Origin: a virus
IMG/VR virus record: IMGVR_UViG_3300009151_000043
Location: 31,419 to 95,418 of that record
Direction: 5' to 3' (one strand)
DNA length: 64,000 bases
The first letter of the stretch is position 1. Each line of letters begins with the position of its first letter. The notes under the pieces were generated by a model. The model saw nothing but the letters and a program-made list of their open reading frames with translations, was not told where the DNA came from and searched no databases. The position numbers were made by a program, and so were the translations under genes. This document shows positions 1-54,749 of the stretch, one piece after another.

Positions 1-550
1 CGAGGTCTTCTGCAGCTTTTACAAAATTCTCAGCAGAGTCTACCCGCACATTGAATGGAAAGTTGTTGATATTCCTTGTGAAGCTTTCAGCGGAAGAAAC
101 TAGGTCTGCTGCAGTTTTAACAGGGTATAGCTGCACAGAAGCCATTCCATCAACATGAAAGTCGACCATGTGCTGCTCTTCGTAATCCGATGCTTGCTTG
201 ATGTTCAAGCTACTATTGTAATCCCGGATATCTTCCGTGATTTCAAAAATATCTGCAGCCTTCTCGATAGCTGATTCAAGTTGACTAGAGTAGCTTTCTC
301 CGTATAGTTTGGAGATATCAGCCTTTTTATTTATAAAGTAGGCATTAGATGTATAAACACGCGCAGGAGTATTAATGGGATATATCATCCGATCAGGATC
401 AGCAAAAGCAGCCTTGGGCAACTTGCGTAATTCGCTAGAGTCGTCCACCTCAGCTGTTTTAACATATTCAGGAAGTTCCACATCCCTGAACATACGGTGC
501 ATTTCCTTGCCTGAATAGTCTGTACTGGCGTCAAAGTTATAAATACTCAT
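1..550 (-). CDS. Hypothetical K-x-A-rich protein, truncated by the window edge (not in ORF track)
   Basis: Manual translation from ATG at 550 (MSIYNFDASTDYSGKEMHRMFRDVELPEYVKTAEVDD...) stays open to position 1. It contains KTA, KQA and KAA motifs like the head proteins. Confidence 0.8.
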   Translation of the reverse strand, partial: MSIYNFDASTDYSGKEMHRMFRDVELPEYVKTAEVDDSSELRKLPKAAFADPDRMIYPINTPARVYTSNAYFINKKADISKLYGESYSSQLESAIEKAADIFEITEDIRDYNSSLNIKQASDYEEQHMVDFHVDGMASVQLYPVKTAADLVSSAESFTRNINNFPFNVRVDSAENFVKAAEDL

Positions 551-566
551 ATTTTTCAATTATACT

Positions 567-2749: not shown

Positions 2750-3445
2750 CTAGGATGAGAAAAACACAGCGTCGTTAGTTGCTGGTGTCTTGCCTACTGT
2801 GTTCGGCTTATTGGGCCACGTCTCTTCCACAGTTGACCTGTTGGGAGAAGTACCAATCTGTGAAACCGACTCAGGGTTAGGTGAAAAGTTGCCATATTCT
2901 ATATTAAAGCATTGGTTCAACACTACATATTTTCTATCAAACCTACCCTTGCCTTCTCCTACGCGCTCTTGAATAAGGACGGTGATATAGTAGGTGCCGG
3001 CAAAGAAAGTGCTTGTAGCTGCTGAGGGAATCCACACCTCATAATAGCCTGCATCTCCAGACATCTTGTATATGCCAGTCTCCAGACGCCCTTCCCACAA
3101 TACTGTAGCTGCCCTGGGGCTGGTCTTTACAAAGACTTTAACTTCGTAATGTGTGGAATCTACAGGAGCACCGTCATGAAACAGAAAAACATCATAAACG
3201 ATATCTTCGCCCTGATAGAACATGTCTGGGTTCGTATTGCTTCCCTGCTCAAAGGGTATTCCTGGGATACCGTCCAAAATAATGGTGTAGGGCTCAGGAG
3301 GACTGTTCTGCTCTTTCCTGGCACGCATTTGAGACGACTGTAATGCTGCAAGATTGTCTATAGCGGCCTTATAGACACTTTGTGAATCTCCCCCAGCATC
3401 CTGGGTAAAAAACTGAGGTATTACATCGTCCTGCATATTATACAC
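2750..3445 (-). CDS. Hypothetical virion/baseplate-associated protein (BppU-N-like beta domain)
   Basis: 231-aa ORF at the end of the tail operon. FYQGEDIVYDVFLFHDGAPVD..YEVKVFVK resembles baseplate upper-protein N-domains. Confidence 0.5.
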   Translation of the reverse strand: MYNMQDDVIPQFFTQDAGGDSQSVYKAAIDNLAALQSSQMRARKEQNSPPEPYTIILDGIPGIPFEQGSNTNPDMFYQGEDIVYDVFLFHDGAPVDSTHYEVKVFVKTSPRAATVLWEGRLETGIYKMSGDAGYYEVWIPSAATSTFFAGTYYITVLIQERVGEGKGRFDRKYVVLNQCFNIEYGNFSPNPESVSQIGTSPNRSTVEETWPNKPNTVGKTPATNDAVFFSS

Positions 3446-39489: not shown

Positions 39490-39699
39490 TTATTTGTCAG
39501 CAAGCAAACCTAGCGCTCTTGCCATATCATCAAAATTTGGATCTTCGCCTTTGGTATACCTTACCCAGCCTTGCCCATCTCCGATTATGCGATAGATAAC
39601 ATTGGGCCTATCGTCATCGGAAGTTATCAGTAATCCTGTAGCCTTGTCTGTGTTTAACAATATAGGCTCTCTAAAATCCCCTGTAACTATGATCTTCAT
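39490..39699 (-). CDS. Hypothetical protein, 69 aa
   Basis: ATG overlaps the upstream TAA. Confidence 0.6.
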   Translation of the reverse strand: MKIIVTGDFREPILLNTDKATGLLITSDDDRPNVIYRIIGDGQGWVRYTKGEDPNFDDMARALGLLADK

Positions 39700-39938
39700 T
39701 ATAATTTAATCTGTTGAAAATGGCTGTCTACTTCGTGCTGTTTAAGTAGATCACTCAATTGATCTAGCTCTTCAGGATTTTCAGGATTTTCATTCTGTGC
39801 GGCTTCTTCTGGCAGCTTTTTAAACATTTCTTGTGTGCCTGGATAGTCTGACGCTCTTTTCAGAGTATGGGCTGCCTCTTCTGGAGACAACCCATACTCT
39901 TCAGCGTATTTTAAAAACCCCGCTTCGAAAGAAGTCAT
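39699..39938 (-). CDS. Small protein carrying the shared GFxKxAxEYGLS module
   Basis: MTSFEAGFLKYAEEYGLSPEEAAHTLKRAS. The ATG at 39938, just after the sheath stop, is preferred over the track's start at 39956. Confidence 0.7.
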   Translation of the reverse strand: MTSFEAGFLKYAEEYGLSPEEAAHTLKRASDYPGTQEMFKKLPEEAAQNENPENPEELDQLSDLLKQHEVDSHFQQIKL

Positions 39939-39942
39939 GCGA

Positions 39943-42900
39943 CTAATCTCCCACAACCAATTTTAAGCTGATGTAGTTCATTGGGTACGGTACATGCAGA
40001 CGTACTTCGCAATCAATTCTATCTTTGTAGGTGGCGTTTTGCTCTAGTTTAATGATGTCGGTTTGTGGATCAAAGCTAACCAATTGGTTACCTGCTCTCG
40101 TTGTGCGGGTACCTGTGGCTCGGAAGTAAAGCTCACTCACTACAGCATTTCTCACTGCGAAAACCGCTGCAGGGTTGATGTTCCATTTTCCTATGAAAGG
40201 TGTTAAAACATTCTTTAGAGCATAGCTGATATTGTCTACGTTCGTCGTGATGGAATCTTCCGAGGTGTTTAAGTTGCTTGTGTCTGTGGTGAGTTGATGT
40301 CTGACATAAGGCGTAGCACCAATCACTTCTTGGGTGATTATCCAGATGCCTTGCTCTGCCATAGTGTTCAAGTCGTCCTGAGAAAACTCAATAACTACCT
40401 TAGATAGGTCGTCAGCCCCCAAATACTGGGTATTAGTCAACCCCTGATGAGGCACAACTCCCCCACGCAAACCTGCAAGACCTGCGGCAGCAAAATATCC
40501 CTGCTTGACCACACCGTCGTACTTGAATGTGTCTGGGAATACGCAGCGCACGCGGCGGTTATTAAACTCCCCACCGATAAAGGCGATGTTCGTGGCGCTC
40601 AGACTTAGTATAGTTTCTGATAACTTGCACCTTCACCGCAGAGTTAATTGGACTAGCCAACGCTCTTGTTATAGTTAACGTTGTGTTGGACTTCACAGTG
40701 TCCACGATATATTCATCATAAATTAACTTACCTGTTGGATCTATCCTGAAGTTAAGCCTGATGCTGTCTGTAGGTCTGACACCGTCTTCAACAAACTTAG
40801 CTCCTACAACAGTCACCAGCTTGTATTGAGTATTGGACACCGATGTGTCGTCAGTGATTGTGGCGGTGTACGGTGTCTCTCCGTCTTCTTTAAGGTCATA
40901 CAGGACCTTAGTCTTTTTATCTTCGACAGAAAGCCAGGCAATTCTCCAGCGTCCTACTTCAGGAGTACTGTAGGCGTTAACATGAGATACGACAGCGTCC
41001 TGGATGGCTCTGTCGAAAGTCATAGGTACAAAGCTATACACCTTATCGCTTTTTTCCGAAATCTTAATTGCTTCAACATAGCCTGGAAGGTCGTTAGAGG
41101 CTACTGCCAAGAAATAGACAATCTGATTGTTACTATTCAGTACAGCGTCGTATACCCCTTGAGCCAAAGGATTATCAGGGTGTACGACACCTAGTTTGGA
41201 TTGTACACTAGCTAAATCTCTAACAGAGTCGATAGTCACCACATTACTGGTCAGCAGATCTCTGTGCTCAACAAATACTTTTGCAGCCAAGATTGGAAGT
41301 CTGGCGGGTTCACCCAGAACAGTCAGCTTTGGATTAAAAGTTGTCCAGTTAGCGTTGATAGATATGTACGTGTCTTCCTGGTCCCAGTTATTGTCTTCTT
41401 CACCGTTGATGTCACGGATCTGCGCTATCTCTATGCTGCGTTGATGAAGGGATAATGTAGCTACTTTGTTCGTAGATGCTGGGGTGAGCATTGCGTCCGG
41501 CAAAGCGTCAGCAAGCTGCACAATTCTGGCTGCTCCGTGTCTGGGGGCCAATACAGGCACAAAATAAACATCACCAACGATAAGCCCACCATTATTTGAG
41601 GCATCGTCAAATTCACCTGTAACTCCAAAGCGCCCGATAGGGAAAGAGCTTTCAATTCTAGGGAGCACGACAGAAGGTACATCGATATCTGAGGCTGTAA
41701 TTTTAAGTCTGGCGCAGGTAGCAGCATTGCTTCCGTTATAGAAAGCTCCGCCACGCTCTACGACAATCTTGTATGTCATGTCGATGGGTCCGATATAGTC
41801 GCCACCACCAACAATTTCAACAGGGGAAACATCAGCAAAGACAGTTAAAGAATACTGTGCGGTAGCTACAAAGTTTGTAGAGCTTTTGAAGTTGAGTCTG
41901 ACATTGTTACCGTTATTGGTGTCCAGCGTCAGGTAATACTCAGAGCCTACGTGGGTAAGTGCAACATTATTAACTGGGGTGAACGCATGGTTCAAAGACT
42001 CAACCCTAAATAACACATCAGCTAATGTGCCTCCAGTAGTGACTGTGGCTCTGTAGGTATCATTAAAGATAGTTTTGTTGTTGTAGCCTACGTAGGCAGT
42101 AGTTGCGTTAATAACCGTGACCACGTTACCTGGAGGGCTAAGTAAGGTCGACACGGCACCATTGAGTACCTCTGTGGATGCTTGCGCGTTGTTGATGTCT
42201 CCGTAAGTTCCTGCGATTCTGAAAGAATAATGGTCCCCACCTAAGTCAGGCAAGATCTGGTCAAGCAAAAGTACTTTTTCGGAAACCAAGCCGACGATTT
42301 TACGTACAATTCCTTCGCTCGTTGTGAGATAATTTCCTACAACATCGGCTGCCGAGAACACACTAGTGTCTGTGGCTGTAAACGTGTTCGATGCGTCGTT
42401 ACCTTGCCCTGTACCGAAGTAATCTCCTGAGCCTGTAAGATCTAATTGAGGAGCCACCTGAGAAGCCAGGCTCATGTCTTCAATGTGGGTCAACGTATGG
42501 ACTGCGGTAACACGCGAGCGTGCAACATTGTTCAAGTCATCTGTAACAGTAATGATGTCTCCGATAGAGACGTCACGATCACCAAAACAAGAGGAACGGT
42601 CGTGCCCATTAGCTGTCTTTAGATACACTTCAGTAAATTGTAATTGATTGCTGTGATACTGCCCTGAAGGACCAGGGACGAGCTCTACACTAGCGTCTGA
42701 TTCAATAGAGCTGCCCAGAGCTTCAAGAGGGAAGTACTGCGCTTCGACAGACTCAGCAAAAACTTTAGTATAGCTTTGATCTACATGCGCACCAGGGAGA
42801 ACATTAGGAATATCATAACGTGTACCTATTACGGTAGAGTTGTTCATGACGATCTCGCTACCTACCGGGTCATAATTATTAGCCTCAGGGAGGGCCACAC

Positions 42901-43060
42901 CATCAAGTGTTCCAATAATTGTGGATGCCTTTTCTCCGGCCACTGAATATCTATGTAGGTCAAAATTTGGACCTATGATGAATGCGGGTAGAGGAAACTC
43001 TCCGTAAACAGGCAGCTGAAGGAACTCTTGTTGAATTAGGACGCGTGGTGTAATGTACAT
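39943..43060 (-). CDS. Tail sheath protein, frameshifted near 40595 (track ORFs 40562-43060 and 39943-40551)
   Basis: N-terminus MYITPRVLIQQEF with AGGAG RBS. The C-terminal piece has sheath motifs (GYFAAAGLAGLRGG..PHQGLTN, VRHQLTT, VPYPMNYI). The frames join as ..KSER|ATNIAFIGGEFNNRRVRCVFP. Confidence 0.85.
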
Positions 43061-43098
43061 ATTTTTTTCTCCTGTATAGTTTATTTATACTTTAGTTA

Positions 43099-43127
43099 AG
43101 TCTATTTAATTTTTGGCTAGCGAGCAA
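43099..43127 (-). promoter_or_regulatory. sigma70-type promoter of the sheath gene
   Basis: TTGCTC-N17-TAGACT. Confidence 0.55.
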
Positions 43128-43146
43128 TCTTTTTTTTAACTATTGT

Positions 43147-43818
43147 TTATTTGCAAACATCTCCCTCGGTCGAGGTAGACAGCATGAATGTTTTAAGCTT
43201 TAAGTCGTCTCCTATGAGGTACCAGTTCATGTCGAAATGCGTAAGCAATGTAATGTTTATAACAAAGTGGTCTTTACTCTCCAAGTATAGCTGAGGCGGA
43301 CTCACGTTAGCAACTTGAATTCTTCGAAAATTAAAATCATTTGTTAGTGTTTCTAAATGCCTCAAGAAGAATTTGAACACGTACTCAGCTAGCTGTTCTA
43401 CAAAACCCACATTAGTGGCTACAATTGCAATAATTATAGGAAGCTCTATAATGGCTGACTTGGTCTTCGTTGACTCTGCAGGGTTCTGGGCAAGCAGCTG
43501 ATTCCAGATAGGGTATTTAAATGATGACTCTCCTCTAGAAATATAGACCCCTGGTCTTTTCTGGATGATAGCGTCTTTGTAGCTATAGGCTATCTCTAAA
43601 CCTATCCCTGACTTGAGTGGATCCTCGTCGTATCTTTGAGAAAACATATAGCCTTCTTCTTGAGGCGAGTTCACCAGCATGTAGTTTTTTAAAGCTTCGT
43701 AGCAGATGTTTTGTACTGTCCATGGAGTTAACACAGGTACACGCTCGTCTCGCTCATTCAGCTCTCTGATATAAGGATCGACTCTTGGGTTTGGACAAAT
43801 TTCGGTATCGTCAGCCAT
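43147..43818 (-). CDS. Putative tail terminator/completion protein
   Basis: 223 aa between the neck and sheath genes; QKRPGVYISRG. Confidence 0.55.
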   Translation of the reverse strand: MADDTEICPNPRVDPYIRELNERDERVPVLTPWTVQNICYEALKNYMLVNSPQEEGYMFSQRYDEDPLKSGIGLEIAYSYKDAIIQKRPGVYISRGESSFKYPIWNQLLAQNPAESTKTKSAIIELPIIIAIVATNVGFVEQLAEYVFKFFLRHLETLTNDFNFRRIQVANVSPPQLYLESKDHFVINITLLTHFDMNWYLIGDDLKLKTFMLSTSTEGDVCK

Positions 43819-43833
43819 GGTGTATGTTTTGAG

Positions 43834-44673
43834 CTACGCCTTAAAATCAAACGTCGCTGGAATGGGTATAGAATATATTGTGTCGCTGATAGGTATCACG
43901 TTCATAGACAACTTCTGTAGTATAATTATACTGGTACCTGGAAACTGCTTTGTGTTTTTAGCTGAGACACTATATCTGACACCTTCTTGGGCGTCACAAA
44001 TAATATCTCTGACTTCAGTAATAGGGTAACCAGGCATTCTTATATTTGCACTATATTTTTCTTTTACACCTATGCCGCTGGGGTCAAGCTGCTTGTCTTG
44101 GTCAGTAGATTCTACTATAAAAGTACAAGGTACCGGTGGAAAATAGCCTTCGTCCACTCCGACGCCATAGTCTTCTAGCTTCGTATCTGCTATAGGTACA
44201 CCTGATACAGGATCTATATTCTTATGTGCTACCCTGTTGCCTCCTATAGTTCCTCCATAAGACTTTCTGCGCAAGAGCCAGGCAGATGCTCCTCCGTATC
44301 TACATAACAGTATTTCTTTACGTATTACCTCAGCAGCCATAGCGTAGCGCTGTCTTTCTTGTCGGCTAGTACCAAAAAGTACAGGATAAGAATTATAGCG
44401 CTTACCATCTGCCGCAGTAAGACAGACCCTGTAAGCGTAGTTTGGTTCCCAAGACTGCTTGGCTCGCGTATCATCTACAGCGAAAAATACTTCACCAAGA
44501 TTTTTTTTAGTAGCTATCAACTCATTAAAAGCGTCGTTCTCGGCAATCTCTAATGAAAAGTTATAAGGGCGGACAGCCTTAAAAAAAGGATCCAGCTGCC
44601 ACTGCACAACATGTCCTCTTTCCCAATCAGGGATTACAGAGATGTGCTTAAAAACTCTATTGGCTACAGCCAT
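43834..44673 (-). CDS. Putative head closure/neck protein
   Basis: 279 aa; gene order; GVGVDEGYFPP..YPITEVRDII pattern. Confidence 0.5.
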   Translation of the reverse strand: MAVANRVFKHISVIPDWERGHVVQWQLDPFFKAVRPYNFSLEIAENDAFNELIATKKNLGEVFFAVDDTRAKQSWEPNYAYRVCLTAADGKRYNSYPVLFGTSRQERQRYAMAAEVIRKEILLCRYGGASAWLLRRKSYGGTIGGNRVAHKNIDPVSGVPIADTKLEDYGVGVDEGYFPPVPCTFIVESTDQDKQLDPSGIGVKEKYSANIRMPGYPITEVRDIICDAQEGVRYSVSAKNTKQFPGTSIIILQKLSMNVIPISDTIYSIPIPATFDFKA

Positions 44674-44675
44674 GC

Positions 44676-44885
44676 TTATTTACCTCCGCGCAATATTTCA
44701 GCAACTACCTTGAAGTCTTTTGCAACTTCAGCAAAACCACCATTTAAAATACTGTTTATAGACTTTTTAACCTTATGCTTCAATATTTTCGCACGTATTC
44801 TAGCCTTGAAAGATGGGCTTTGCAGTGCGGTATCTGCGGCCTGGTAAGCTTGCTTTCCTGCATTAAATAGTTTCTCCGGCATCAT
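44676..44885 (-). CDS. Hypothetical basic protein, 69 aa
   Basis: Fills the operon with abutting start and stop. Confidence 0.55.
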   Translation of the reverse strand: MMPEKLFNAGKQAYQAADTALQSPSFKARIRAKILKHKVKKSINSILNGGFAEVAKDFKVVAEILRGGK

Positions 44886-45332
44886 TTAGAACCTCCTTCT
44901 ATAGATATATTCTGAGTGTTTGACTCCATATATTTGGGCGATGTTATGGTTCATCTTTATCTGTTGTCCTAGCTCTTTAAAGTCTTGCTGTAAGGCCTGC
45001 GATAGCGACATGAATATCTGCGCCTTATCTTTATCGTTAATCTGTACGCCGTCTGCCGCATAAGAGAGTGAGTTGGCTGCCTCATTTATCGATCCTGACC
45101 GTAAAAGGTATGCAGCTGTACCCAGCAGCAAAAGCGATCTATAAGGAAACGACTCTATAGAATGCATGATCCCTGTAGGAGGGTTCATTAGGTTATAATA
45201 GTCTACCGTATTAATCATCGCCTGCTCTATCATCTCAGGGGTAAATCTAACTCCCAACAACAATGGATTAAGCTCCTGCCTGTCTTGCAGGAAGAGCCGT
45301 ACTTCTTCTGCTGTAAGAATAGGGGTAGCCAT
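44886..45332 (-). CDS. Putative head-tail adaptor protein
   Basis: 148 aa, helical, after the MCP; LTAEEVRLFLQD..FTPEMIEQAM..LSYAADGVQIND. Confidence 0.6.
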   Translation of the reverse strand: MATPILTAEEVRLFLQDRQELNPLLLGVRFTPEMIEQAMINTVDYYNLMNPPTGIMHSIESFPYRSLLLLGTAAYLLRSGSINEAANSLSYAADGVQINDKDKAQIFMSLSQALQQDFKELGQQIKMNHNIAQIYGVKHSEYIYRRRF

Positions 45333-45334
45333 AA

Positions 45335-45625
45335 TTAACCTTTTGGTGGTGTTGGAGACAGATCTAGCGCTTTAGCTTTTAATGGTGCACCTGTAGGCGC
45401 TCCAGAGCTAGGGTTCGTTATTCCTGGTGACATGGTATTGTTCGACATGGGTGTCGCGTTTATCCTGGCCATGTTGTTGCCTGAGCTTACTTCCGCTGTC
45501 TGTAAATGGTCTGCTGTTTCTGCTGCGGTCGTTCCGCCTCCTCCTCCCCCAGGTGGAGGTGTAATCTGCATCGATGCTTTTTCCATATACCTAGTAAAGT
45601 CCACCAAGATATTTTCTTCTTTCAT
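45335..45625 (-). CDS. Low-complexity P/G/T protein, possibly leaderless
   Basis: 96 aa, FTRYMEKAS then PPPGGGGGG. The ATG lies 6 nt downstream of a TATAAT. Confidence 0.6.
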   Translation of the reverse strand: MKEENILVDFTRYMEKASMQITPPPGGGGGGTTAAETADHLQTAEVSSGNNMARINATPMSNNTMSPGITNPSSGAPTGAPLKAKALDLSPTPPKG

Positions 45626-45631
45626 AGCTTA

Positions 45632-45660
45632 ATTATACATTTAACCCGCCTAGTTATCAA
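45632..45660 (-). promoter_or_regulatory. sigma70-type promoter of the neck operon
   Basis: TTGATA-N17-TATAAT. Confidence 0.75.
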
Positions 45661-45676
45661 GAGGGATATCGACAAC

Positions 45677-45703
45677 AAAAAGGGGGCCCGCAGGCCCCCT
45701 TTT
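45677..45703 (-). terminator. Intrinsic terminator after the major capsid gene
   Basis: GGGGGCC-TGCG-GGCCCCC followed by TTTTT on the minus strand. Confidence 0.85.
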
Positions 45704-45727
45704 ATAGTGTCTTTTACTTTTCTTGCA

Positions 45728-46687
45728 TTAAGCGTTGAAGTCGATCTTCACAACACCCTTCACGTTGCCGATGGCAAGCGAGAGGTTCATGTACTGGAAG
45801 TACTCGAGGAAGTAGGCTTCGTTCTTCATGAACACTGTGAGAGGCTGCAATCTGTAGTACTTGCCGAAGAACTCTTCGGAGGAGAACAGATAGATCACAC
45901 CGTCAGGGACGAGATCGCGCTTGATGGTGTAGATCGGTTTCACGCCCAAGAGAGTCTTGGAAGGAAGTCCATTGACCCACATTTCCTGCGCCATGTCGCC
46001 GCCGACTTCAGAACGACTCATTTTAACGAAGTCATCTGCAGTAACGTTGTTCATCAGCATAACACCCTTTGTTTCTCCGCCGTCTGGCTGAGAAGGACCG
46101 AAAGGTACCCTGAGACGCTTGATGACCTTGAAGGCTTCAGCGACGTTCTCACGAGTGATACCACCACTGATAGTAACATTCTGAGGAAGTCCGAGACCGT
46201 TAAGTGCATTAGCTGTGTTAACTGTGCCGATAACACTGTTAACGCGGGTCATGAAACGTGTATCGATTTCTGTGGCGATGTCCTTTGTGGACAACTCAAG
46301 CATGATCGCACGGATATCATAATCGTAGCTTCTGAGCTGGTCGATGTCCTTGTTGAACTTCGGGCTCGTGATACGTGTGAAGTAGGAAGGATACCGTGTA
46401 CCAGAGAACTGGAACATGTCAGGCACTACACCCAAAGGAATAGTGACGGCAGGAGCAGTATCAGGCTCACGATCGTTCCACTTAACAAGAAGCTCAGGAT
46501 TCTCAGACTTGTCGAGATCATCATTGCTGATGTCGATAGGTGTGATAATCTTTTCTGTGAAGCTTTCTTCACGAAGCTTGTTACGTGTGAAGGACTGTGC
46601 ACTCACAGCTGCTTTCTTTTCTTCACCAGCTTTAACCATTTCAACGAACGTATCGTTGAACACTCTTTGATTAGCGATTTTTTCCAT
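45728..46687 (-). CDS. Major capsid protein (HK97-fold-like)
   Basis: 319 aa with strong C-ending codon bias, followed by a terminator and downstream of the protease and cement genes. FTRITSPKFNKDI..L, DIATEIDTRF and VPDGVIYLF patterns. Confidence 0.8.
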   Translation of the reverse strand: MEKIANQRVFNDTFVEMVKAGEEKKAAVSAQSFTRNKLREESFTEKIITPIDISNDDLDKSENPELLVKWNDREPDTAPAVTIPLGVVPDMFQFSGTRYPSYFTRITSPKFNKDIDQLRSYDYDIRAIMLELSTKDIATEIDTRFMTRVNSVIGTVNTANALNGLGLPQNVTISGGITRENVAEAFKVIKRLRVPFGPSQPDGGETKGVMLMNNVTADDFVKMSRSEVGGDMAQEMWVNGLPSKTLLGVKPIYTIKRDLVPDGVIYLFSSEEFFGKYYRLQPLTVFMKNEAYFLEYFQYMNLSLAIGNVKGVVKIDFNA

Positions 46688-46704
46688 ATATTATGTATCT
46701 AGGT

Positions 46705-47187
46705 TTAGCTGTACAATTTAACTCCGAGCACGGTGATAACACCCTGCACTTTATAACCATTGATCACCTGGGTGACGCCTGGGATTGAGCGGCTGCCTTC
46801 AACCTGGCCGATGACTCTGTCAGATCCTCCAGCTGCCTTAACATTACCTGTACCGGCTTCTGCTGTAAGCAAGTCTCCGAGGCTGTAGCTGGAGGCGTCT
46901 CCAACGAACTTATCGGTTTCGATGACGGATGCGCCATCCAAAGCATACACGCCGATGACTCCAGATTCAATCACGTCACCAGCTGTCTGGCTGTTGATTG
47001 CAAACCCGAGAAGTTCATCTTTAGCTGTAGCTACGCTAGAGCCCTTTTTGACTTCTGTGACTGCACCGTTTGGTTCCAAGCGAACAATCATCCCTGCTTC
47101 GATATTTGCGCCGCTCTCGTTGTTTGGCACCCCAACATAGTTGATTTGGTGCAAACTAAGAGCAGGTCCTTTTTTGAAATTAATCAT
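46705..47187 (-). CDS. Capsid cement/decoration protein
   Basis: 160 aa directly upstream of the MCP, with AGGAG RBS. IEAGMIV..LLGFA..YSLGDLLT..VIGQV is a beta-tulip-like pattern. Confidence 0.65.
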   Translation of the reverse strand: MINFKKGPALSLHQINYVGVPNNESGANIEAGMIVRLEPNGAVTEVKKGSSVATAKDELLGFAINSQTAGDVIESGVIGVYALDGASVIETDKFVGDASSYSLGDLLTAEAGTGNVKAAGGSDRVIGQVEGSRSIPGVTQVINGYKVQGVITVLGVKLYS

Positions 47188-47345
47188 TTTAGTTTTCTCC
47201 TATTTGTTTTGTTTGTTGATTTGTTTTTGAGGTTTTCCTCAGTTTGCTTCAAACCCCGAATTCCGATCAAGGAGAGTTCAGAAATTGTCTGCTGAAAGTT
47301 AATATAGTTATTTTCTTAGAAAATAACTATTTAGTCAATATTATT

Positions 47346-47822
47346 TTAATCGAATAGACTTGGAGTCTCCACGTCCTTCAAATGCTTTTTATGTATCTCA
47401 TCCATGAACGCCTTTTGCTGTTTACCTCCCCCATGAATCATTTTGGCTAAAGCTGCCACCGGAGCGAGTCCGGGCACCATTTCCGCAGCCGAGAGACCTA
47501 CCCCCATGTCACCTGCTGTACCACCAGTATACCTTCTTACTGCCCTAGTTGCTGCCTCGGTCAATGGGCCACCAACAAAAGGGTTCGCTATGTAATGCCC
47601 GAGATGATGTTTGCGATTATAGACAAGACCTTTCAGCTTTTCATCTGCAGCATATCTTGAGGCTGTGTTATCTGCGTCCCATGGACCTATATGCTCTTCC
47701 TCTTTATCCTTATGTTTATCTTTTGCAAATTTTCCTAAAAGCTCTAGAGCCTCCTGTTGGGATACTCCGTATTCACTAGCTCTCTTAACGAATCCAGTGA
47801 TGTATGCTTGTTGTGTGTTCAT
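47346..47822 (-). CDS. Putative internal head protein with N-terminal shared module
   Basis: AYITGFVKRASEYGVSQQEALELLGKFA followed by an unrelated cargo region. Confidence 0.7.
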   Translation of the reverse strand: MNTQQAYITGFVKRASEYGVSQQEALELLGKFAKDKHKDKEEEHIGPWDADNTASRYAADEKLKGLVYNRKHHLGHYIANPFVGGPLTEAATRAVRRYTGGTAGDMGVGLSAAEMVPGLAPVAALAKMIHGGGKQQKAFMDEIHKKHLKDVETPSLFD

Positions 47823-47825
47823 AGA

Positions 47826-48266
47826 TTACTCCTCCTGTTGGGTTAAGCGTTCTTTTAATAATTTTCTTTCAGCCATTTGCTTGGTCAACATATCTACGGG
47901 GGTACCTACACCAGCGCCGACAGCTCCCCCTATAGCTCCGCCTTTCAAGGCTGAAGCTAGCACACTAGCGTTGCCTGAATACGGATTAACTTTACGTGTT
48001 ATCCCGTTCAATAATGAGGCGAGCGCCGCTGCACCTAAGCCCCCTGTAATGGCTCCTGCTCCTGCTCCTGTGTATTTACCTATGTTGCGTGCCAGGTGGG
48101 CGGGAGCTCCTTCTTCGCTCACAGCATCCCCGAGTTCGTCAGTACCAGAATAACCAAAATGAGATGATGCAGACTTAAGTAGCGCAACGGCCTCTTGTTC
48201 GGTGAGGCTGTACATACCGGCTCTTTTTATAAATCCGGCAATAAAACTATCGTCAATATTAGGCAT
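47826..48266 (-). CDS. Putative internal head protein: shared module plus glycine-zipper helices
   Basis: SFIAGFIKRAGMYSLTEQEAVALLKSAS; GAGAGAITGGLG and GGAIGGAVGAGVG. Confidence 0.7.
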   Translation of the reverse strand: MPNIDDSFIAGFIKRAGMYSLTEQEAVALLKSASSHFGYSGTDELGDAVSEEGAPAHLARNIGKYTGAGAGAITGGLGAAALASLLNGITRKVNPYSGNASVLASALKGGAIGGAVGAGVGTPVDMLTKQMAERKLLKERLTQQEE

Positions 48267-48269
48267 AAA

Positions 48270-48662
48270 TTAATCGTCTAGTAGGTTATAACCATTGTCG
48301 TAACCGAAAGCTCTCCTCAGTACAGGATCATCTGACTGCCCAGAGGCCTTTACAGTTGCAGACTTGCCCATATAGGCTACGTCAGCTGCGTTACAAACTC
48401 GCTCAACCACCTTAGCCAGATATTTTGGATCTTCTTTGGCTCTTTTAACGAAAAGAGCTCTTTCATCCTCATCATTAATAAAATCTGAGCTATACATCGC
48501 GTCTGCGGCTTTTTTAATTGCTTGGTCTAGCTCAGTGTTTTTCCTAACCGTTTCTGCTCCCTCTTTAACCTGCAGCGTATGTACTTGCTGTTTAAGCTCT
48601 GCAATCTCTGACAAGGCCACCTTAACAAAGGCTTCAACTTTATGTAGTGCTTGTTTGGTCAT
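48270..48662 (-). CDS. Putative scaffold/core protein (coiled coil)
   Basis: 130 aa; KQA, KVA, KAA, KRA and KSA motifs. Confidence 0.65.
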   Translation of the reverse strand: MTKQALHKVEAFVKVALSEIAELKQQVHTLQVKEGAETVRKNTELDQAIKKAADAMYSSDFINDEDERALFVKRAKEDPKYLAKVVERVCNAADVAYMGKSATVKASGQSDDPVLRRAFGYDNGYNLLDD

Positions 48663-48795
48663 TTTTCACCTTTTCTAGAGTTATAAGACTGTCAATATAC
48701 TCAATGACTTTAGACTTATCTTCTTGGCTTAGATGTTGAAGAGCCTGCAGAGCCTGCTCTTCAACTAAGCTTTTCTTCGCAGAAGTGGCAGCCAT
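48640..48795 (-). CDS. Small 51-aa ORF (below track cut-off)
   Basis: Manual translation MAATSAKKSLVEEQALQALQHLSQEDKSKVIEYIDSLITLEKVKNDQTSTT*; fills the gap in the operon. Confidence 0.55.
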   Translation of the reverse strand: MAATSAKKSLVEEQALQALQHLSQEDKSKVIEYIDSLITLEKVKNDQTSTT

Positions 48796-48812
48796 CGTTA
48801 TTGTGGCCTGAA

Positions 48813-49727
48813 CTACTTGCTTTCGCCAGTAACCACTTCAGCCTTAAGTCTGTTTAAAACAGTGTCTGCGACAGATGCGGCTAATTTTTCTTGTGTTGCG
48901 AATGCATGTTGCTCGGCTTCTGCCTGCTTAAAGAAAGCCTCATACTCAGCTAATTTAGCGGAAAGCTGCTGGTTTTCAGCAAGCGCTTCCTCCAAGGCGG
49001 CCTGCTTGAGCAATTCGTCAAAATAAGTCGCACCTGCTGTCTCAGCTTCAACAGCTTGCTGCGCTGCTTGTTTTTCTTGCTGCTGGTTATTTTCTAGTTC
49101 TTCAGCAGCTTGAGCAATGAGTACATCAAAATCTCTACGACCTGCTTCTTTCAGCATCTCCAGTTCATCTACAGCAGGAGCTTCGCTAGCGGCCTTCAAC
49201 AGGGCGGCACAGAACTGGCGACCCAACTCGTAAGAGGCTACCTTGGCGGCAAGCTCTTCAACTTCAGCTGCCTTCTTGGCGCTAGCTAAAGGTTTAGAGT
49301 CATCTGTCGATGCTTTCTGGCTATAGTTCTGCTTGTTGTTCTCAGGCTTCACGGCATTCTTGTCGGTCTTTTCCTGGCCATCGCCAACGCTTTCAGATTT
49401 AACAGCGCCTGGCTTGCCGGTGGCGGAGTCCTGAGCTTCAGCTTGTTTACGTAGAATATCTAGAATTTCTGCTCCAAGATTTTCTGCCGTCTTTGTTTTG
49501 GCGAGAGGTTCGGAAGAGTCTTCAGAAGGTTTCTGGGAGTAGCTCTGAGGAACATTTTCAGGACCTACAGAATTCTTATTATAGCCTTCGTGCTCGTCCC
49601 CGACACTAACAGACTTGACGTCTCCTCCGGGTGCTCCGGAGATGTTCTTCTGTGCTTCTTCTGCCTGTTTTTTCACCATTGAATGAAGTTGATTGAGGAC
49701 CTCTGCGTGTTTAGTTAATTTAGCCAT
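48813..49727 (-). CDS. Putative prohead scaffold/core protein with internal duplication
   Basis: 304 aa with AGGAG RBS and its own promoter, an acidic coiled-coil C-terminus, at least 12 K-x-A motifs and two ~65-aa repeats. Confidence 0.7.
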   Translation of the reverse strand: MAKLTKHAEVLNQLHSMVKKQAEEAQKNISGAPGGDVKSVSVGDEHEGYNKNSVGPENVPQSYSQKPSEDSSEPLAKTKTAENLGAEILDILRKQAEAQDSATGKPGAVKSESVGDGQEKTDKNAVKPENNKQNYSQKASTDDSKPLASAKKAAEVEELAAKVASYELGRQFCAALLKAASEAPAVDELEMLKEAGRRDFDVLIAQAAEELENNQQQEKQAAQQAVEAETAGATYFDELLKQAALEEALAENQQLSAKLAEYEAFFKQAEAEQHAFATQEKLAASVADTVLNRLKAEVVTGESK

Positions 49728-49750
49728 GTTATTTACTCCTAATTTTTTAA

Positions 49751-49779
49751 AGTTTACTTTGTGTTTTCTGTTTTGTAAA
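49751..49779 (-). promoter_or_regulatory. sigma70-type promoter
   Basis: TTTACA-N17-TAAACT. Confidence 0.55.
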
Positions 49780-49790
49780 TACTTTTATTG

Positions 49791-50528
49791 TTATCTAGAA
49801 TTAAAAGCTTTTGACAAAAAGGTTTGGGTTTGAGCTGGGGAAAGTCCGTAAGCTTGCGCCTGTTTATACACACCTTCAAAATAAGCGTCTTCAGCGGCCT
49901 TAGGCTTAAGGTTGGTGCGGGTGTTCTTGTTGTAGTTGGCTTTCTTGACGGAGGATTGCTTGTTGATAGCTGAAATGGTTTGCGTCAAAGCATTATCATA
50001 CAGGTCAACAGCCTGCTTTACACTCGCTCCTTGCTGTAAGGCGTTGCTGATAAAACCTTCAATGTAACCTGCAGATTTAAGCATGCGGAATGCAGCCATT
50101 TTTTCCGGAGGTAAAGAGGCAGCTGCTTCTGGGGATGCTTCTGGTGAACTACCTAAGTGTCCTTGTATGGCTTGCGCCAAAGCTGCGACGTCTTCTCCTC
50201 CACCTGCCGCCTCTCCCGGATGCTGCATGTTTGAGGAAAGCTCTGTAGCCAATTCTTCCAGTTCTTGTGGGGAAAGCTGGGAAAGAAGGTGCTCGATATC
50301 TCCGCCTCCTTCTCCACCACCCATACCCATACCCATACCCATACCTATTGGTGCGGATTCGTTATGGCCTTCGGCTCCTTCTCCACCACCCATAGCGTGC
50401 TCTAGCATTTCTGCCTGAGGGGCTTCACTTTGTTCATGCGCTGCTTCTGCGGGGTTACCTGGTTCTTCAGCAGCTCTTTTAGACTGTAAGAAATTTGCGA
50501 TTAGGGATTTTGCGTAAGGATGTGACAT
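49791..50528 (-). CDS. Putative head core protein with low-complexity acidic middle and two C-terminal copies of the shared module
   Basis: GYIEGFISNALQQGASVKQAVDL and AYFEGVYKQAQAYGLSPAQTQTFLSKA; GMGMGMGMG tract. Confidence 0.7.
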   Translation of the reverse strand: MSHPYAKSLIANFLQSKRAAEEPGNPAEAAHEQSEAPQAEMLEHAMGGGEGAEGHNESAPIGMGMGMGMGGGEGGGDIEHLLSQLSPQELEELATELSSNMQHPGEAAGGGEDVAALAQAIQGHLGSSPEASPEAAASLPPEKMAAFRMLKSAGYIEGFISNALQQGASVKQAVDLYDNALTQTISAINKQSSVKKANYNKNTRTNLKPKAAEDAYFEGVYKQAQAYGLSPAQTQTFLSKAFNSR

Positions 50529-50551
50529 ATAGTTACTGGTTTATTTTTTAA

Positions 50552-50580
50552 ATGTTAACTGAATTTCTGTAGTGTTCCAA
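50552..50580 (-). promoter_or_regulatory. sigma70-type promoter
   Basis: TTGGAA-N17-TAACAT. Confidence 0.5.
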
Positions 50581-50587
50581 TCTTTTT

Positions 50588-52036
50588 TTATCTATTTTGT
50601 ACTAGTGCGTTAAATATCGTATCTTCGTCTAGTTTATTCTGGCTGGCCATATAGCGAAGAGCTGCCAATTTATACGCAGCATATTCTTTTGCTAAAGTCT
50701 TTACGGCTGATTCTTTAGACATCTCTTTGTCTTCTTCTTTATGCTTTAATTTGGCTATAGGCATTTTCTTAACGATCGTGATGCGCATTATTCTACCATG
50801 TGCGGGCTGGTCAAAAAGCGAATGATTTTCAAAAAGATTCTTCACCATATTCATGATACCTTTGGGCATTATATCAGAATGTGACGGCTCATACTTCTCC
50901 TCATTTAATACATCATCGCCATCTTCTTCAAGCTCAGAAAACATAGAGGGAAGATGTTTTTTTACTTTGCTAAACATCTCGCCTGCCCCTCCCTCCATGC
51001 CTTTAGCTCCGAAAAGATATTTAATAAAGTCTTTAGGAGAAAACACAATACCTTTATCTGCTAGCGCTTTAAGCAGTTTGGCTGGCTCAAAACCTCTAAG
51101 CTCTTCCATGGCACTAGCAGAGATATCGTCTCCGTGGTTTAACTTACCTTTCTGCTCTGCGAGATACTTATCTTTAGAGTCTTTGGGTCCTCCTTCGATA
51201 ACCCCATCAATATGCTTTTCCAGGGCTGCCAGCTTTTTAACCAAAGACCTTTTTTCTGCGGCGTACTTGGATATCTGCAAAAAACTGTCATCGTCAGGAG
51301 CCACAAAACCAGGATAAAGCTCTCTGTAATCTGAAGCTGTTTTAACGTAGCTGCTATCTGAAGCCAGTTTAAGACTCATGCCTATGCGGTCGGCGGGTCT
51401 TCCAACAATAGATAACTCAAACCACTTAGGGTCGATATTGTCCATACTGCACATCTCTCCTCGCTTGTTAATCTCTCCTAGCTTGGAAGGGATGTGTTTG
51501 CAGCGATGGTTATCCGTTTTGGCTTCATGACCGCACCAAGTGCATTTGTCGTAGGCTACTTTAGCTGCCATACTAACATTGATCTGCTTTCCTTCTGCCA
51601 GCTTTTGAAGCTCTTCGGCGCACTTATCGTTATCCATTCCGATAACAAGCTCGATACGCTTCATCTTATCGTTATAGGAAGCTGCTTTGATATTGCCGTA
51701 TTTAGGGTCTTCAGGCTTGTTCTTGTGGTGCCTATTTAAAGCTCTACCATCATAAGAACCATCTTTCCGTTTGCTTCCAGACTTAACGAAAGTTTTGTAA
51801 TGCTGCTTACAGGCAGCTTCTTTAAAAATATCACCATTTCTGTTAGCTCCTGTACCCTCATAAGCCCCCAGAGCAATAACTAGTACGTCTGTCTGTCCGG
51901 CGGTCTTCTCTGCTCTAAGCTCTGAGTTATCTGCACCTGCTTTGGTGAGGGTATTACTGTTATGAATCAACTGTACAGGCTCTATGTCCCAGTTCCAGTC
52001 GTTCGTATCGCTAAATTTAATTAAACCTTTGTACAT
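50588..52036 (-). CDS. Prohead (capsid maturation) protease with zinc-finger insert
   Basis: NRNGDIF, RHH (candidate catalytic His), VSMAA (candidate catalytic Ser), CTWCG..C.H and FELSIV..PAD fit the HK97/herpes-fold prohead protease pattern. Confidence 0.8.
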   Translation of the reverse strand: MYKGLIKFSDTNDWNWDIEPVQLIHNSNTLTKAGADNSELRAEKTAGQTDVLVIALGAYEGTGANRNGDIFKEAACKQHYKTFVKSGSKRKDGSYDGRALNRHHKNKPEDPKYGNIKAASYNDKMKRIELVIGMDNDKCAEELQKLAEGKQINVSMAAKVAYDKCTWCGHEAKTDNHRCKHIPSKLGEINKRGEMCSMDNIDPKWFELSIVGRPADRIGMSLKLASDSSYVKTASDYRELYPGFVAPDDDSFLQISKYAAEKRSLVKKLAALEKHIDGVIEGGPKDSKDKYLAEQKGKLNHGDDISASAMEELRGFEPAKLLKALADKGIVFSPKDFIKYLFGAKGMEGGAGEMFSKVKKHLPSMFSELEEDGDDVLNEEKYEPSHSDIMPKGIMNMVKNLFENHSLFDQPAHGRIMRITIVKKMPIAKLKHKEEDKEMSKESAVKTLAKEYAAYKLAALRYMASQNKLDEDTIFNALVQNR

Positions 52037-52038
52037 AA

Positions 52039-54303
52039 TTACTGTATTTTATCGGCACGGTCAAACTCTCCACGAGACTTGAGTAGTGTCTTTTTCCAAT
52101 CTTTAATTTTGCCTGAAGAATTACTTTGATTCTGTATGGCTTTCAGCAAATGATAAAGCCCTGCTCCTCCTGCAGCTATGCCGGCTCCAGCCAATAAGGG
52201 AGTTCTATGCCTTACTAAGTTTTTAAGAATACTTGACTCTTGGTGCTTCTTATCTTGCAGCCTCCTAAGCGATGTGTCTACGAACGCTGCGCCTTTTGGA
52301 TCTTTTGCTAGGCTAAAATCTCCTCCTCTGCGATATTCATGCATAACGTCTTTGACCAACTCGCTATCAAAGTGCGGGTTGGCTCCAGTCAAATTATGTT
52401 TTTCAAATAAATCAGCTACAGCTTGGTCCTTACTTGGGGCGAAATGTTCGCTGATAAAATCTCCAATTCTCCCTTTCCCTCGTAAAGAATGTAGCCCTTC
52501 GCCTATATATTCCTTTAGTCCTCCTTTGCTGTGCGCCCTCTGTAACGACTCATGCACATCAGCATAAGAGGCTAAACTACTTGCGGCTGGAGAATTTTTA
52601 GCAGTATTAATGACACCCTGCATAGCGTCCTTATTTCCGAGCGCTTTAGCTTGCCTGTACTGAGCTAAAAAAGATTTGGGGTGACCTGCCTCTGTTTTAT
52701 TTAATCTATCCAGGATAGCTAAACGCTTCTCTGGGTCGGTTTGCAAATCTCCAAAAACGCGAGAAACATCGGGGCGCATTTTACCCTTTTGAGGCTCTAG
52801 CAAAACAGAAGAATTGGATGCATCCGCTTTAGGATTTCCTTCGCGAGCCATGCTTGCCGGCTCTGTTTTATTCATATTGCTCCACTGACTATACAAATTT
52901 TTAAGTACGCCCCCACCTGCCACAGCTGCACCTATAGGTAAAGAATGTTTGGCTAGGTCTGTAGCTACTGCCTGTACTGGATGCTCGTCATAGAAAGTTT
53001 CTCCGGTGTTCTGCTTGAGTCCTGTGGCATATTGCATCCCTACGAGACCTTTACGTACCTGTTCTTTTAATGCCGCTATTCTAGCTACATCTGCTTTATT
53101 GTGCGCTTCTGGAGAAATAGAAGGATGTATAGCTGCATATAAATCAGAATCTTTACCAGCTTCCGGATTTGCCAGGGCTTGACTAAATTGCGTATTTGCT
53201 GTTTTCATTTGAGTATTTTGTGGTTGTGCTGCGGCTGCCGCAGGTATAGTATTATTCTGTGTAGGAGCTGGACTGGGCTTCGTTCCTGTAGGTTTGCCTT
53301 GAGCGGATAATTGCTGGGTTTGCCATTCTGGCTTAACCATTGGCGGGCTTGCGCCGAACCAGCCACCTACACGGTCGTTAATAGACATAAGCTTGGGATC
53401 TAGAGGTACCAATCCGTTATGTTTGGGTAAGTTGCCTCCTGCCTGAGGGGCTTGTGTTGCTGTTGATTGTCGGGGGGGCTCCATGAATTTACTGGGCTGC
53501 GTGTTCAGATTCTTCCAGACATCTACTCCCTGATTTGCTATATCTATGCCGGTACTGACAAGCGGACCTACAGGAGGAAGAAAATTAGCTCCCGCTGAAA
53601 CTAGACTCATCGCTCCTTGAGCCTTGTTTAATAACCCAGGTTCTTTAAATTTATTCATGCCGTAATTAATATCCATGGCTGAAGCTACCCCAGGAAGTAT
53701 GTGAGAACCTACTGCTTTTCCGACCATTCTTGCAGCGGTGTTACCTAGTGCTCCTCTTACTCCTTTAGTTATTGCTGGCTGGAGAGCTGGACCGGCTTTA
53801 GCTGCTAAATAACCTGCTCCGCCTGCTCCGCTGTACAGGGCAGCATTACCTAGATGTGCGCCTCTATTCTCTGGGTCTCGCCAGGCGCTAACTAATTCAG
53901 GGGCTGCAGCTAGAGCTGATCCGCCTACGACCCCTGCTTTCGCTACACTACCTAAGGCTCCAGCCATGTTCGGTAGAGTGTTTCTGGGGTTTGTAGCTTT
54001 CCAGGAATTTTTTAATTGTTCGAAGTTTGTCCCTGTCACGCCTGGTTTACGCCCTCCTAAATAGCTAGCGGCTCCTAATCCTGCATTCAATCCTGCCATA
54101 CCTAGCTCAGGATGCCATTCACCAGTTTGAGGGCCTTCACCCAGAGCAGCTGCGTCTTCTGGACTTACTTTATTTGTAATATCGTTAGCTGCGCCAGCGA
54201 TGCCTCTACCCAAATTTAATTTATGCTGCAAACTAGGAAGGTGCATGGGTGCCCCTATTGCGGTTTTTTCTAAGGGACGGAACAATTTACTATAAAGATA
54301 CAT
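52039..54303 (-). CDS. Large G/A-rich putative internal (ejection) protein with hydrophobic glycine-zipper segments
   Basis: 754 aa; LEKTA near the N-terminus and MKTA in the middle; several GxxxG hydrophobic helices. Confidence 0.65.
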   Translation of the reverse strand: MYLYSKLFRPLEKTAIGAPMHLPSLQHKLNLGRGIAGAANDITNKVSPEDAAALGEGPQTGEWHPELGMAGLNAGLGAASYLGGRKPGVTGTNFEQLKNSWKATNPRNTLPNMAGALGSVAKAGVVGGSALAAAPELVSAWRDPENRGAHLGNAALYSGAGGAGYLAAKAGPALQPAITKGVRGALGNTAARMVGKAVGSHILPGVASAMDINYGMNKFKEPGLLNKAQGAMSLVSAGANFLPPVGPLVSTGIDIANQGVDVWKNLNTQPSKFMEPPRQSTATQAPQAGGNLPKHNGLVPLDPKLMSINDRVGGWFGASPPMVKPEWQTQQLSAQGKPTGTKPSPAPTQNNTIPAAAAAQPQNTQMKTANTQFSQALANPEAGKDSDLYAAIHPSISPEAHNKADVARIAALKEQVRKGLVGMQYATGLKQNTGETFYDEHPVQAVATDLAKHSLPIGAAVAGGGVLKNLYSQWSNMNKTEPASMAREGNPKADASNSSVLLEPQKGKMRPDVSRVFGDLQTDPEKRLAILDRLNKTEAGHPKSFLAQYRQAKALGNKDAMQGVINTAKNSPAASSLASYADVHESLQRAHSKGGLKEYIGEGLHSLRGKGRIGDFISEHFAPSKDQAVADLFEKHNLTGANPHFDSELVKDVMHEYRRGGDFSLAKDPKGAAFVDTSLRRLQDKKHQESSILKNLVRHRTPLLAGAGIAAGGAGLYHLLKAIQNQSNSSGKIKDWKKTLLKSRGEFDRADKIQ

Positions 54304-54323
54304 AGCGATATGTTATATGCCTA

Positions 54324-54749
54324 CTAGTCAATGCGTTGGCCGTGGGGAGAAACCGACATAAGCGCAGACTGTTGTGGGTCAGGTCCTTCAAGACCACGAG
54401 CTATAGGGTCATAAATAGGTCTGGCTAGTGCGTCTCCAAGCATAAATGTGCCAGTATTAGCTGCCATACCCTTTAGACTGAAGGGGTCTTTCATGGCGTC
54501 GACTAAGCCTTTTGTGTGTTTGACTATAGGTGCAGGAATGGCTTTCCCTTTAAATGGCCCCCGCATTATACGCCTACCTGCAGCCAATCTTTCTAAACCT
54601 TTATTAACTCCCCAGTTACTAAGTACGGGTGCGGCAATTCTAATGAGTGTAGGCAGAAAGGCCTCTTTGGTCATACCTAACTCATCAGCCCGTTTAAAAA
54701 TACCGTCAACGAACGCCTGCTCTAGGTTTGGGTCTTCACTATATAGCAT
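54324..54749 (-). CDS. Putative internal head protein with N-terminal shared module
   Basis: AFVDGIFKRADELGMTKEAF followed by amphipathic cargo. Confidence 0.7.
   Translation of the reverse strand: MLYSEDPNLEQAFVDGIFKRADELGMTKEAFLPTLIRIAAPVLSNWGVNKGLERLAAGRRIMRGPFKGKAIPAPIVKHTKGLVDAMKDPFSLKGMAANTGTFMLGDALARPIYDPIARGLEGPDPQQSALMSVSPHGQRID

Follow-up and report, generated by a model that had tools for sequence, protein, structure and literature searches.

A helical hairpin of about 30 residues shared by unrelated proteins of an uncultured phage: a possible docking domain for the prohead core

The window analysed here is a stretch of 64,000 nucleotides that forms the final 64 kb of one 95,418-bp viral contig (IMG/VR record IMGVR_UViG_3300009151_000043; CheckV completeness 49%), and in a region of it where all genes lie on the minus strand otherwise unrelated proteins share a module of about 30 residues. 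We interpret this module as a T4-like domain that docks or targets prohead-core and internal proteins in an uncultured clade of phages with genomes of about 200 kb, an interpretation to which we give a probability of about one in two, and of which we infer three parts, namely a location inside the capsid, the partner that is bound and any clipping. The precedent is phage T4: all that its internal proteins have in common is a short N-terminal capsid-targeting sequence, which attaches to the scaffolding core and is cleaved off by gp21 (PMC3012670, PMC7411985). This sequence is common to IPI, IPII, IPIII and Alt (PMC3012670; PMC7411985), and in T-even phages the ip loci are polymorphic, the genes behind the sequence differing between phages (PMC3012670, PMC7411985, citing Mullaney and Black 1996; Repoila et al. 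1994).

The first-pass annotation had listed six copies of the module in five genes, and all of its peptide strings were found in the genes to which it had assigned them (Table 1). From the six copies we built a profile hidden Markov model (HMM); run over all six-frame pieces of the 95-kb contig, it recovered all six and a seventh clear copy in the gene of a 246-amino-acid (aa) protein just outside the window; profile searches gave no additional copy anywhere in the contig. In total, five genes of the contig carry the module from residues 6-12 onward and a sixth, which encodes an acidic 245-aa protein that we call the hub, carries two copies. Because both of these sit in the C-terminal half of the hub (module strings at residues 154-176 and 215-241), the module is not exclusively a leader. 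In leave-one-out tests, HMMs made from the remaining copies and searched against all six-frame pieces of the contig retrieved the copies of the 85-aa open reading frame (ORF), the 158-aa and the 146-aa proteins with E-values of 1e-7, 3e-9 and 5e-7, and those of the 245-aa and 141-aa proteins with 0.012 and 0.12. When a profile of seven copies was run on 1.84 billion proteins, it returned 501 cluster representatives from metagenomes at E <=1e-3 and 42 at E <=1e-10.

The marginal values of the two weakest copies could suggest that the similarity arises by chance or composition, as it might among short amphipathic helices with a high content of A, E, K and L. We reject this explanation, the probability of which we consider negligible. 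With a profile of 246 database domains, from which the two identical own proteins had been removed and in which near-identical relatives were kept, the window copies scored 16.7-83 bits (16.7 for the 141-aa copy) while the best scores in 20 residue-shuffled genomes were 3.1-11.0 bits, so that the alignment is significant against the shuffled controls on which the first-pass annotation had made it depend. The 501 database clusters, the invariant positions, a strong bias towards protein residue 4 and the conserved synteny described below argue in the same direction.

The consensus of the module is Q-A-Y-I-E/N-G-F-V-K-R-A-S-E-Y-G-(L/F/Y)-S-x-x-E-A-I-E-L-L-K-x-A. It is a predicted self-contained helix-turn-helix hairpin, acidic (isoelectric point (pI) ~5), the two helices of which resemble a repeated unit, I-E-(G)-F-V-K-R-A-S and I-E-L-L-K-Q-A-A. 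In a logo of 69 proteins with a single N-terminal copy, the segments Q-A-Y-I through G-F-V-K-R-A, E-Y-G and E-A-I-E-L-L-K-x-A are near-invariant. Conservation stops sharply after L-L-K-x-A (K in 66/69, A or S in 65/69), and beyond this point no residue exceeds about 20%, proline and alanine being the commonest. The K-x-A ending first described for the module applies to most copies; the copy of the 141-aa protein ends in R-I-A. Paralogous modules within one genome are 53-66% identical at the protein level, and the synonymous third positions of their identical residues are 57-72% identical. Since the synonymous sites have diverged, recent gene conversion is ruled out as the cause of the conservation, and the module is kept by constraint at the protein level.

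As far as sequence searches tell, the module is an undescribed family. Its motif strings occur in no paper in this context according to a literature search, in agreement with the first-pass annotation, which knew of no description. Pfam-A and PHROGs v4 gave no family match for the module in the five window proteins, and Pfam run on 149 family members returned scattered domains of unknown function (DUFs), no Pfam family matching more than three members. The literature on DUF3008, DUF6321 and DUF5661 yielded nothing. No module match was found in the PDB by sequence, a fold search of the PDB with the hub model returned nothing below E 1, and ESM Atlas was uninformative for both queries. A module leader was confirmed in none of 185,579 bacterial and archaeal species genomes, and a tblastn search of GenBank phages with the hub and the 158-aa protein gave no match. 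All module-carrying contigs look like fragments of phages of about 190-200 kb. In two complete relatives (198 and 204 kb) the module occurs 9 and 12 times, distributed over 8 and 11 genes at fixed positions, and with the 501 clusters and the arrays of 3-8 module genes described below this bears out the expectation that many small variable genes would carry the motif.

Two classes of carriers can be distinguished. Among 157 family proteins, from which all counts of architecture are drawn, the module starts 12 residues or less from the N-terminus in 104, and 69 consist of a single N-terminal copy in a protein of 49-284 aa. These small proteins, about ten per genome, with the module at residues 4-34 and unrelated tails behind it, make up the first class and correspond to the portable unit on unrelated proteins that had been proposed. 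Their tails have a median length of 94 aa, are rich in P, A, G, S and T and of low complexity, and are basic (pI >8) in 58 of 68 cases; a membrane-span-like segment was detected in 0 of 68. A few contain uncharacterised domains (DUF6321, DUF3008, DUF5661 and a weak R2K ATP-grasp match). Such mostly small, basic, low-complexity tails are not recognisable effectors, and the suggestion that the cargo consists of injected effectors finds little support. The description of the module as an N-terminal leader suits these small proteins; it does not extend to the hub, where the module is internal and repeated, or to DUF3008 proteins, where it is internal and in some cases placed after the DUF3008 domain.

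The tails of the window proteins illustrate this diversity. The 158-aa protein has a conserved NPFVGGPLTE motif in its tail and full-length relatives (P0002-P0005), and P0006-P0008 share the module alone. The tail of the 146-aa protein has Gly/Ala-rich zipper-like segments with weak matches of the glycine-zipper type, and that of the 141-aa protein, whose module string spans residues 12-31, is basic (pI 10.2). The 85-aa ORF (39699-39956, minus strand; module at residues 9-36) directly follows the tail sheath gene and starts at an upstream TTG; its true start is likely the ATG at 39938, giving a 79-aa protein with an acidic tail (pI 4.3).

The acidic hub family, of which we found about 45 representatives with two or three modules each, forms the second class. 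The hub begins with an N-terminal module, clear in the relatives and degenerate in the phage studied here, and continues with an acidic low-complexity stretch, a conserved L-L-S-Q-L-S-P-E-E-L-E-Q-L-A helix and the invariant K-S-A-x-Y-I-E-G-F module; a linker and the K-T-A-A-Y-Y-E-G-V module complete it. Across a 43-member alignment K151, S152, A153 and Y155 are invariant. AlphaFold, run on a homolog identical at 244/245 positions, models both modules as helix-loop-helix with a predicted local distance difference test score (pLDDT) of about 90. Where the second module gives way to the third, many hub orthologs have an EF-hand-like loop (Q-H-K-L-D-V-N-x-D-G-K-I-D-x-x-D-L), and many have a Gly/Ala-rich C-terminal extension; the phage studied here has neither.

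Four of the six module genes in the contig lie in the head block, within the stretch formed by the probable portal, protease, scaffold-like and major capsid protein (MCP) genes. The gene order is common to 12 related loci and runs from the probable portal gene through p497, p129, a gene like that of the 141-aa protein, p754 and the protease gene to the hub gene, the gene of the scaffold-like 304-aa protein, p130, zero to two module genes, p160 and the MCP gene; further along come the sheath gene and a gene like that of the 85-aa ORF. A module gene scores at the 141-aa position in 5 of the related loci, and one directly follows the sheath gene in 10 of the 11 that reach that far (that of L007 appears in L004). 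Six loci have nothing in the slot between p130 and p160, five have one gene there and this phage has two, and the seven slot genes from six phages represent at least 4-5 unrelated classes of tails. In the relatives we also found a separate array of 3-8 consecutive module genes, with a holin-like gene (phrog_2359) upstream and, downstream, a homolog of the N-terminus of the 1531-aa protein of the window (30919-35514) and collagen-like tail-fibre genes. Judged by its position in the relatives, the array of this phage would lie beyond the end of the contig. Orthologs of the 158-aa protein are found at the array locus in two relatives and in the head slot in this phage. Both the slot and the arrays are polymorphic loci, with different genes behind the same tag in related phages.

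Two families of HNH endonuclease genes are interspersed in arrays L020-L029 (e.g. L020:7242-12377). Another array, in L003, includes a papain-family cysteine peptidase (L003:5729-6754; Peptidase_C1, E 9e-14) and a full-length DUF1501 protein (L003:8101-9507; E 2e-131), both of them unusual for a phage. We dismissed the possibility that L003 is an unrelated phage, because it matches the array loci of the jumbo relatives in its flanks; L003 probably represents a fragment from the same broad clade.

These positions bear directly on a serious but unlikely alternative, according to which the hairpin is a general docking or oligomerisation domain of a non-capsid complex, for instance in tail, baseplate or fibre assembly or in a membrane-associated late complex, and its location among head genes is incidental. 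The module gene that directly follows the sheath gene in nearly all related loci, the arrays placed after a holin-like gene and before tail-fibre genes, and the Gly/Ala zipper-like segments of some tails would all fit such a complex, and internal repeated copies suit a docking domain better than a leader. However, the gene of the invariant multi-module hub always has the prohead protease gene on one side and the scaffold-like gene on the other, the sequence motif that the module shares with other proteins (see below) is overrepresented in scaffold-type proteins but not in the sheath or further tail proteins, and no tail has a segment resembling a membrane span. Proximity to a holin gene does not discriminate, since T4 ipII and ipIII likewise adjoin a lysis gene, e.

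The 482-aa ORF next to the hub gene probably encodes the prohead protease. Its match to PHROG 18299, "head maturation protease", spans residues 64-227. The protease domain covers approximately residues 1-227 and is followed by a C-terminal extension, with S-Y-V-K-T-A-S at the boundary; homologs are present in Salmonella phage Arash (gp222), Vibrio phage D69 and Bacillus phage G, and the NRNGD, HH and VSMAAK motifs are invariant. In a 190-kb relative the protease is an 852-aa protein (L009:7354-9909, plus strand) with an insertion of about 370 aa after A-Y-D-K, which begins C-F-V-A-G-T-L-V and includes two LAGLIDADG-like motifs; by these features it is probably an intein that carries a homing endonuclease. 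In a more distant relative the ORF measures 871 aa (L031:9935-12547).

The only protease constantly near the module genes is this one, which weighs against another explanation, that the module is a recognition tag for a phage modifying or processing enzyme or a chaperone, comparable to the leader of a ribosomally synthesised and post-translationally modified peptide (RiPP), rather than a capsid address. Two near-invariant lysines in the module (69/69 and 66/69) would agree with this idea; still, no enzyme gene is consistently found beside the module genes, the conserved neighbours of the arrays being HNH endonucleases, the holin-like gene and small uncharacterised proteins. The papain-like peptidase encoded near some arrays was dismissed as a dedicated partner of the module because it is absent from the two complete genomes with 8 and 11 module genes. 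An enzyme tag therefore seems to us quite improbable.

A short motif, hydrophobic-hydrophobic-K-x-[AS], occurs twice in the module (F-V-K-R-A and L-L-K-x-A) and recurs in several proteins of the head block more often than expected from residue-shuffled sequences (Table 1). The protease also exceeds the expectation from shuffled composition, one of its sites falling where the protease domain meets the C-terminal extension, and no excess was found in the MCP, p160, p754, the probable portal, the sheath or a 4062-aa protein. Four of the five motifs of the scaffold-like protein are kept in all 11 orthologs, and the motif sites in this protein, in p130 and in the N-terminus of p497 are conserved in 10-11 orthologs; p130 contains L-F-V-K-R-A, similar to the first helix of the module. 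The motifs [AGS]-x-E (phiKZ/SPN3US) and [LI]-x-E (T4) are not enriched in any head protein. The shared motif may be a cleavage code or may mark a type of helix shared for co-assembly, and would fit either; on the former view hydrophobic-hydrophobic-K-x-A is a candidate cleavage site. The motif is also in excess outside the head cluster, in a 231-aa protein encoded far from it (2750-3445, minus strand; 3 observed versus 0.17 expected). The 354-aa protein listed in Table 1 adjoins the seventh module gene and has a weak match to DUF6582.

What leads us to a role in docking to the capsid core is the logic that the system has in common with T4. In both, a conserved N-terminal element precedes unrelated, mostly small, basic proteins, the gene content behind the element varies among related phages, and a prohead protease, here a probable one matched by PHROG, is encoded beside scaffold-type genes. 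The resemblance in sequence is loose: T4 IPII and IPIII start with M-K-T-Y-Q-E-F-I-A-E and the module proteins with M-N-T-Q-Q-A-Y-I-E-G, a similarity of 4/10 identities seen by eye only, and module profiles gave no significant match to IPI, IPII or IPIII. There are also clear differences. Whereas the T4 peptide has about 10 residues, the module has about 30 and is predicted to fold as a hairpin; a conserved hub contains it at internal positions in two or three copies; and it ends in L-L-K-x-A and not in L/I-x-E.

A second comparison is with SPN3US and phiKZ, in which propeptides of ejection and head proteins are removed by gp245 or gp175 at A/S/G-x-E (PMC7411985, PMC10052503). These too are jumbo phages of the myovirus type with many internal head proteins, N-terminal regions have been proposed to target proteins into the prohead, and the protease has a C-terminal extension, there proposed as core-targeting. 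Their propeptides, however, are 110-130 residues long and belong to paralogous families, unlike the module of about 30 aa on unrelated tails, to which no sequence relationship was found; A-x-E is not enriched here. Encapsulins resemble the system in that a short portable peptide sends diverse cargo into an HK97-fold shell. They differ in that the cargo-loading peptides, unrelated in sequence to the module, are C-terminal and unstructured and bind the shell protein directly, with no protease or scaffold involved.

By the sequences of MCP and protease, the nearest cultured relatives are Arash and D69. In both, the gene right after the prohead protease gene (Arash gp223, D69 VPHD69_0271) encodes an acidic protein, as does the hub gene, and both proteins end in three degenerate repeats like the second helix of the module (G-x-x-F-x-E-A-V-E-L-V-K-E-A-S). 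Comparison by hhalign gave low-probability alignments (E 0.013 for Arash gp223 and 0.0055 for its D69 counterpart). Arash gp223 was detected in purified particles with 9 unique peptides and 283 spectra (PMC10585845). The module profile, run over the complete genomes of Arash and D69, detected no canonical module, and neither genome has an N-terminally tagged gene, which sets them apart from the phage studied here. Orthology of the 141-aa protein with Arash gp221 was not supported.

Several observations weigh against a role in the prohead core. No module-bearing protein has yet been seen in a virion; the link to Arash is a weak homology, and the Arash proteome lists 116 proteins, ribonucleotide reductases among them, so that with its metabolic enzymes it has to be considered permissive. 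One module gene is flanked by the tail sheath gene and tail genes, and the arrays stand beside holin-like and tail-fibre genes, not head genes. The internal position of the module in the hub and in DUF3008 fusions does not agree with a simple cleavable leader. The hub model has a predicted template modelling score (pTM) of 0.42 and hence gives no confident overall arrangement or packing of modules on each other. The probable identity of the protease comes from one PHROG match and motifs; AlphaFold on its N-domain, with 11 close orthologs, reached a pLDDT of only 32, and a PDB sequence search with the protease gave no match. Finally, the K-x-A excess could merely reflect Ala/Lys-rich amphipathic helices.

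Were the module nevertheless to act as a docking domain for the prohead core, the hairpins would co-assemble with the hub or with a scaffold-type core, that is, with proteins that share hydrophobic-hydrophobic-K-x-A helices with the module, and the tails would thereby be enclosed as the shell forms. The head protease would then degrade the core, and the basic tails would remain with the DNA as internal or ejected proteins, as T4 internal proteins do. If the module is clipped, a sub-claim that we regard as possible rather than probable, the candidate cut would fall after L-L-K-x-A. In a more specific version the hairpin tag would dock about ten exchangeable, mostly basic proteins per genome onto a three-hairpin acidic hub by like-with-like pairing of helices, the protease would trim at the candidate site hydrophobic-hydrophobic-K-x-A, a specificity not described for prohead proteases, and the cargo would be reshuffled between the head slot and the HNH-rich array; that all of these elements hold together is distinctly doubtful.

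Table 1 Module genes, landmark genes and motif counts. Positions refer to the window unless marked as genome positions; the motif is hydrophobic-hydrophobic-K-x-[AS], and counts are given as observed / expected.
Feature	Position	Strand	Module copy	Motif	K-x-A	Remarks
246-aa protein	genome 30161-30901	-	residues 6-36	2 / 0.14		outside window; seventh copy
354-aa protein	genome 30913-31977 (window 2-559 plus upstream)	-		5 / 0.52		extends outside window
79-aa protein (85 aa from upstream TTG)	39699-39938	-	39849-39932			N-terminal module
Tail sheath gene	40562-43060 and 39943-40551	-				two ORFs
MCP, 319 aa	45728-46687	-				27% identity over 97% length to annotated MCP of Salmonella phage Arash
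p160, conserved 160-aa protein	46705-47187	-				between cargo slot and MCP; one slot border; synteny in 12 loci
158-aa cargo protein	47346-47822	-	47724-47807 (residues 6-33)
146-aa cargo protein	47826-48266	-	48165-48248 (residues 7-34)
p130, conserved 130-aa protein	48270-48662	-		3 / 0.19	6 / 1.9	borders variable cargo slot
Scaffold-like protein, 304 aa	48813-49727	-		5 / 0.36	15 / 5.3	acidic, helical
Hub, 245 aa	49791-50528	-	49974-50069 and 49806-49886	2 / 0.16	7 / 2.0	acidic
Probable prohead (head maturation) protease, 482 aa	50588-52036	-				phrog_18299 match, E 9e-9
p754, 754-aa protein	52039-54303	-				between 141-aa module gene and protease gene
141-aa protein	54324-54749	-	54630-54716 (residues 12-40)	2 / 0.12	2 / 0.9	weakest copy
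p497				4 / 0.8	19 / 6.3
Probable portal, 750 aa	58727-60979					weak match to Arash structural protein gp218

Some of the genes in Table 1 are named on indirect grounds. The 750-aa ORF is called a probable portal from its position only, and we infer a scaffold role for the 304-aa protein from its position and composition. The p754 protein, kept in all relatives and with no family match, has many Gly/Ala zipper-like segments and a hydrophobic Gly/Ala stretch at its C-terminus. The sheath gene, a single ORF of about 1050 aa in relatives, is split here into ORFs of 832 and 202 aa in different frames with an 11-nt overlap; the split is a frameshift, either genuine or an assembly error.

If our interpretation is right, the T-even phages are not alone in putting a conserved address on swappable internal proteins. 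The strategy would have arisen, or diverged past recognition, among abundant uncultured jumbo phages of an unrelated clade, where a structured domain and a dedicated multi-site hub would do the job. The module would then give a handle on which proteins jumbo phages bring into the cell, along with a candidate new cleavage code for a prohead protease, and a tag of 30 residues might be of use for loading foreign proteins into large capsids. It can also serve to label several hundred "hypothetical" clusters of viral metagenomes as likely head-associated.

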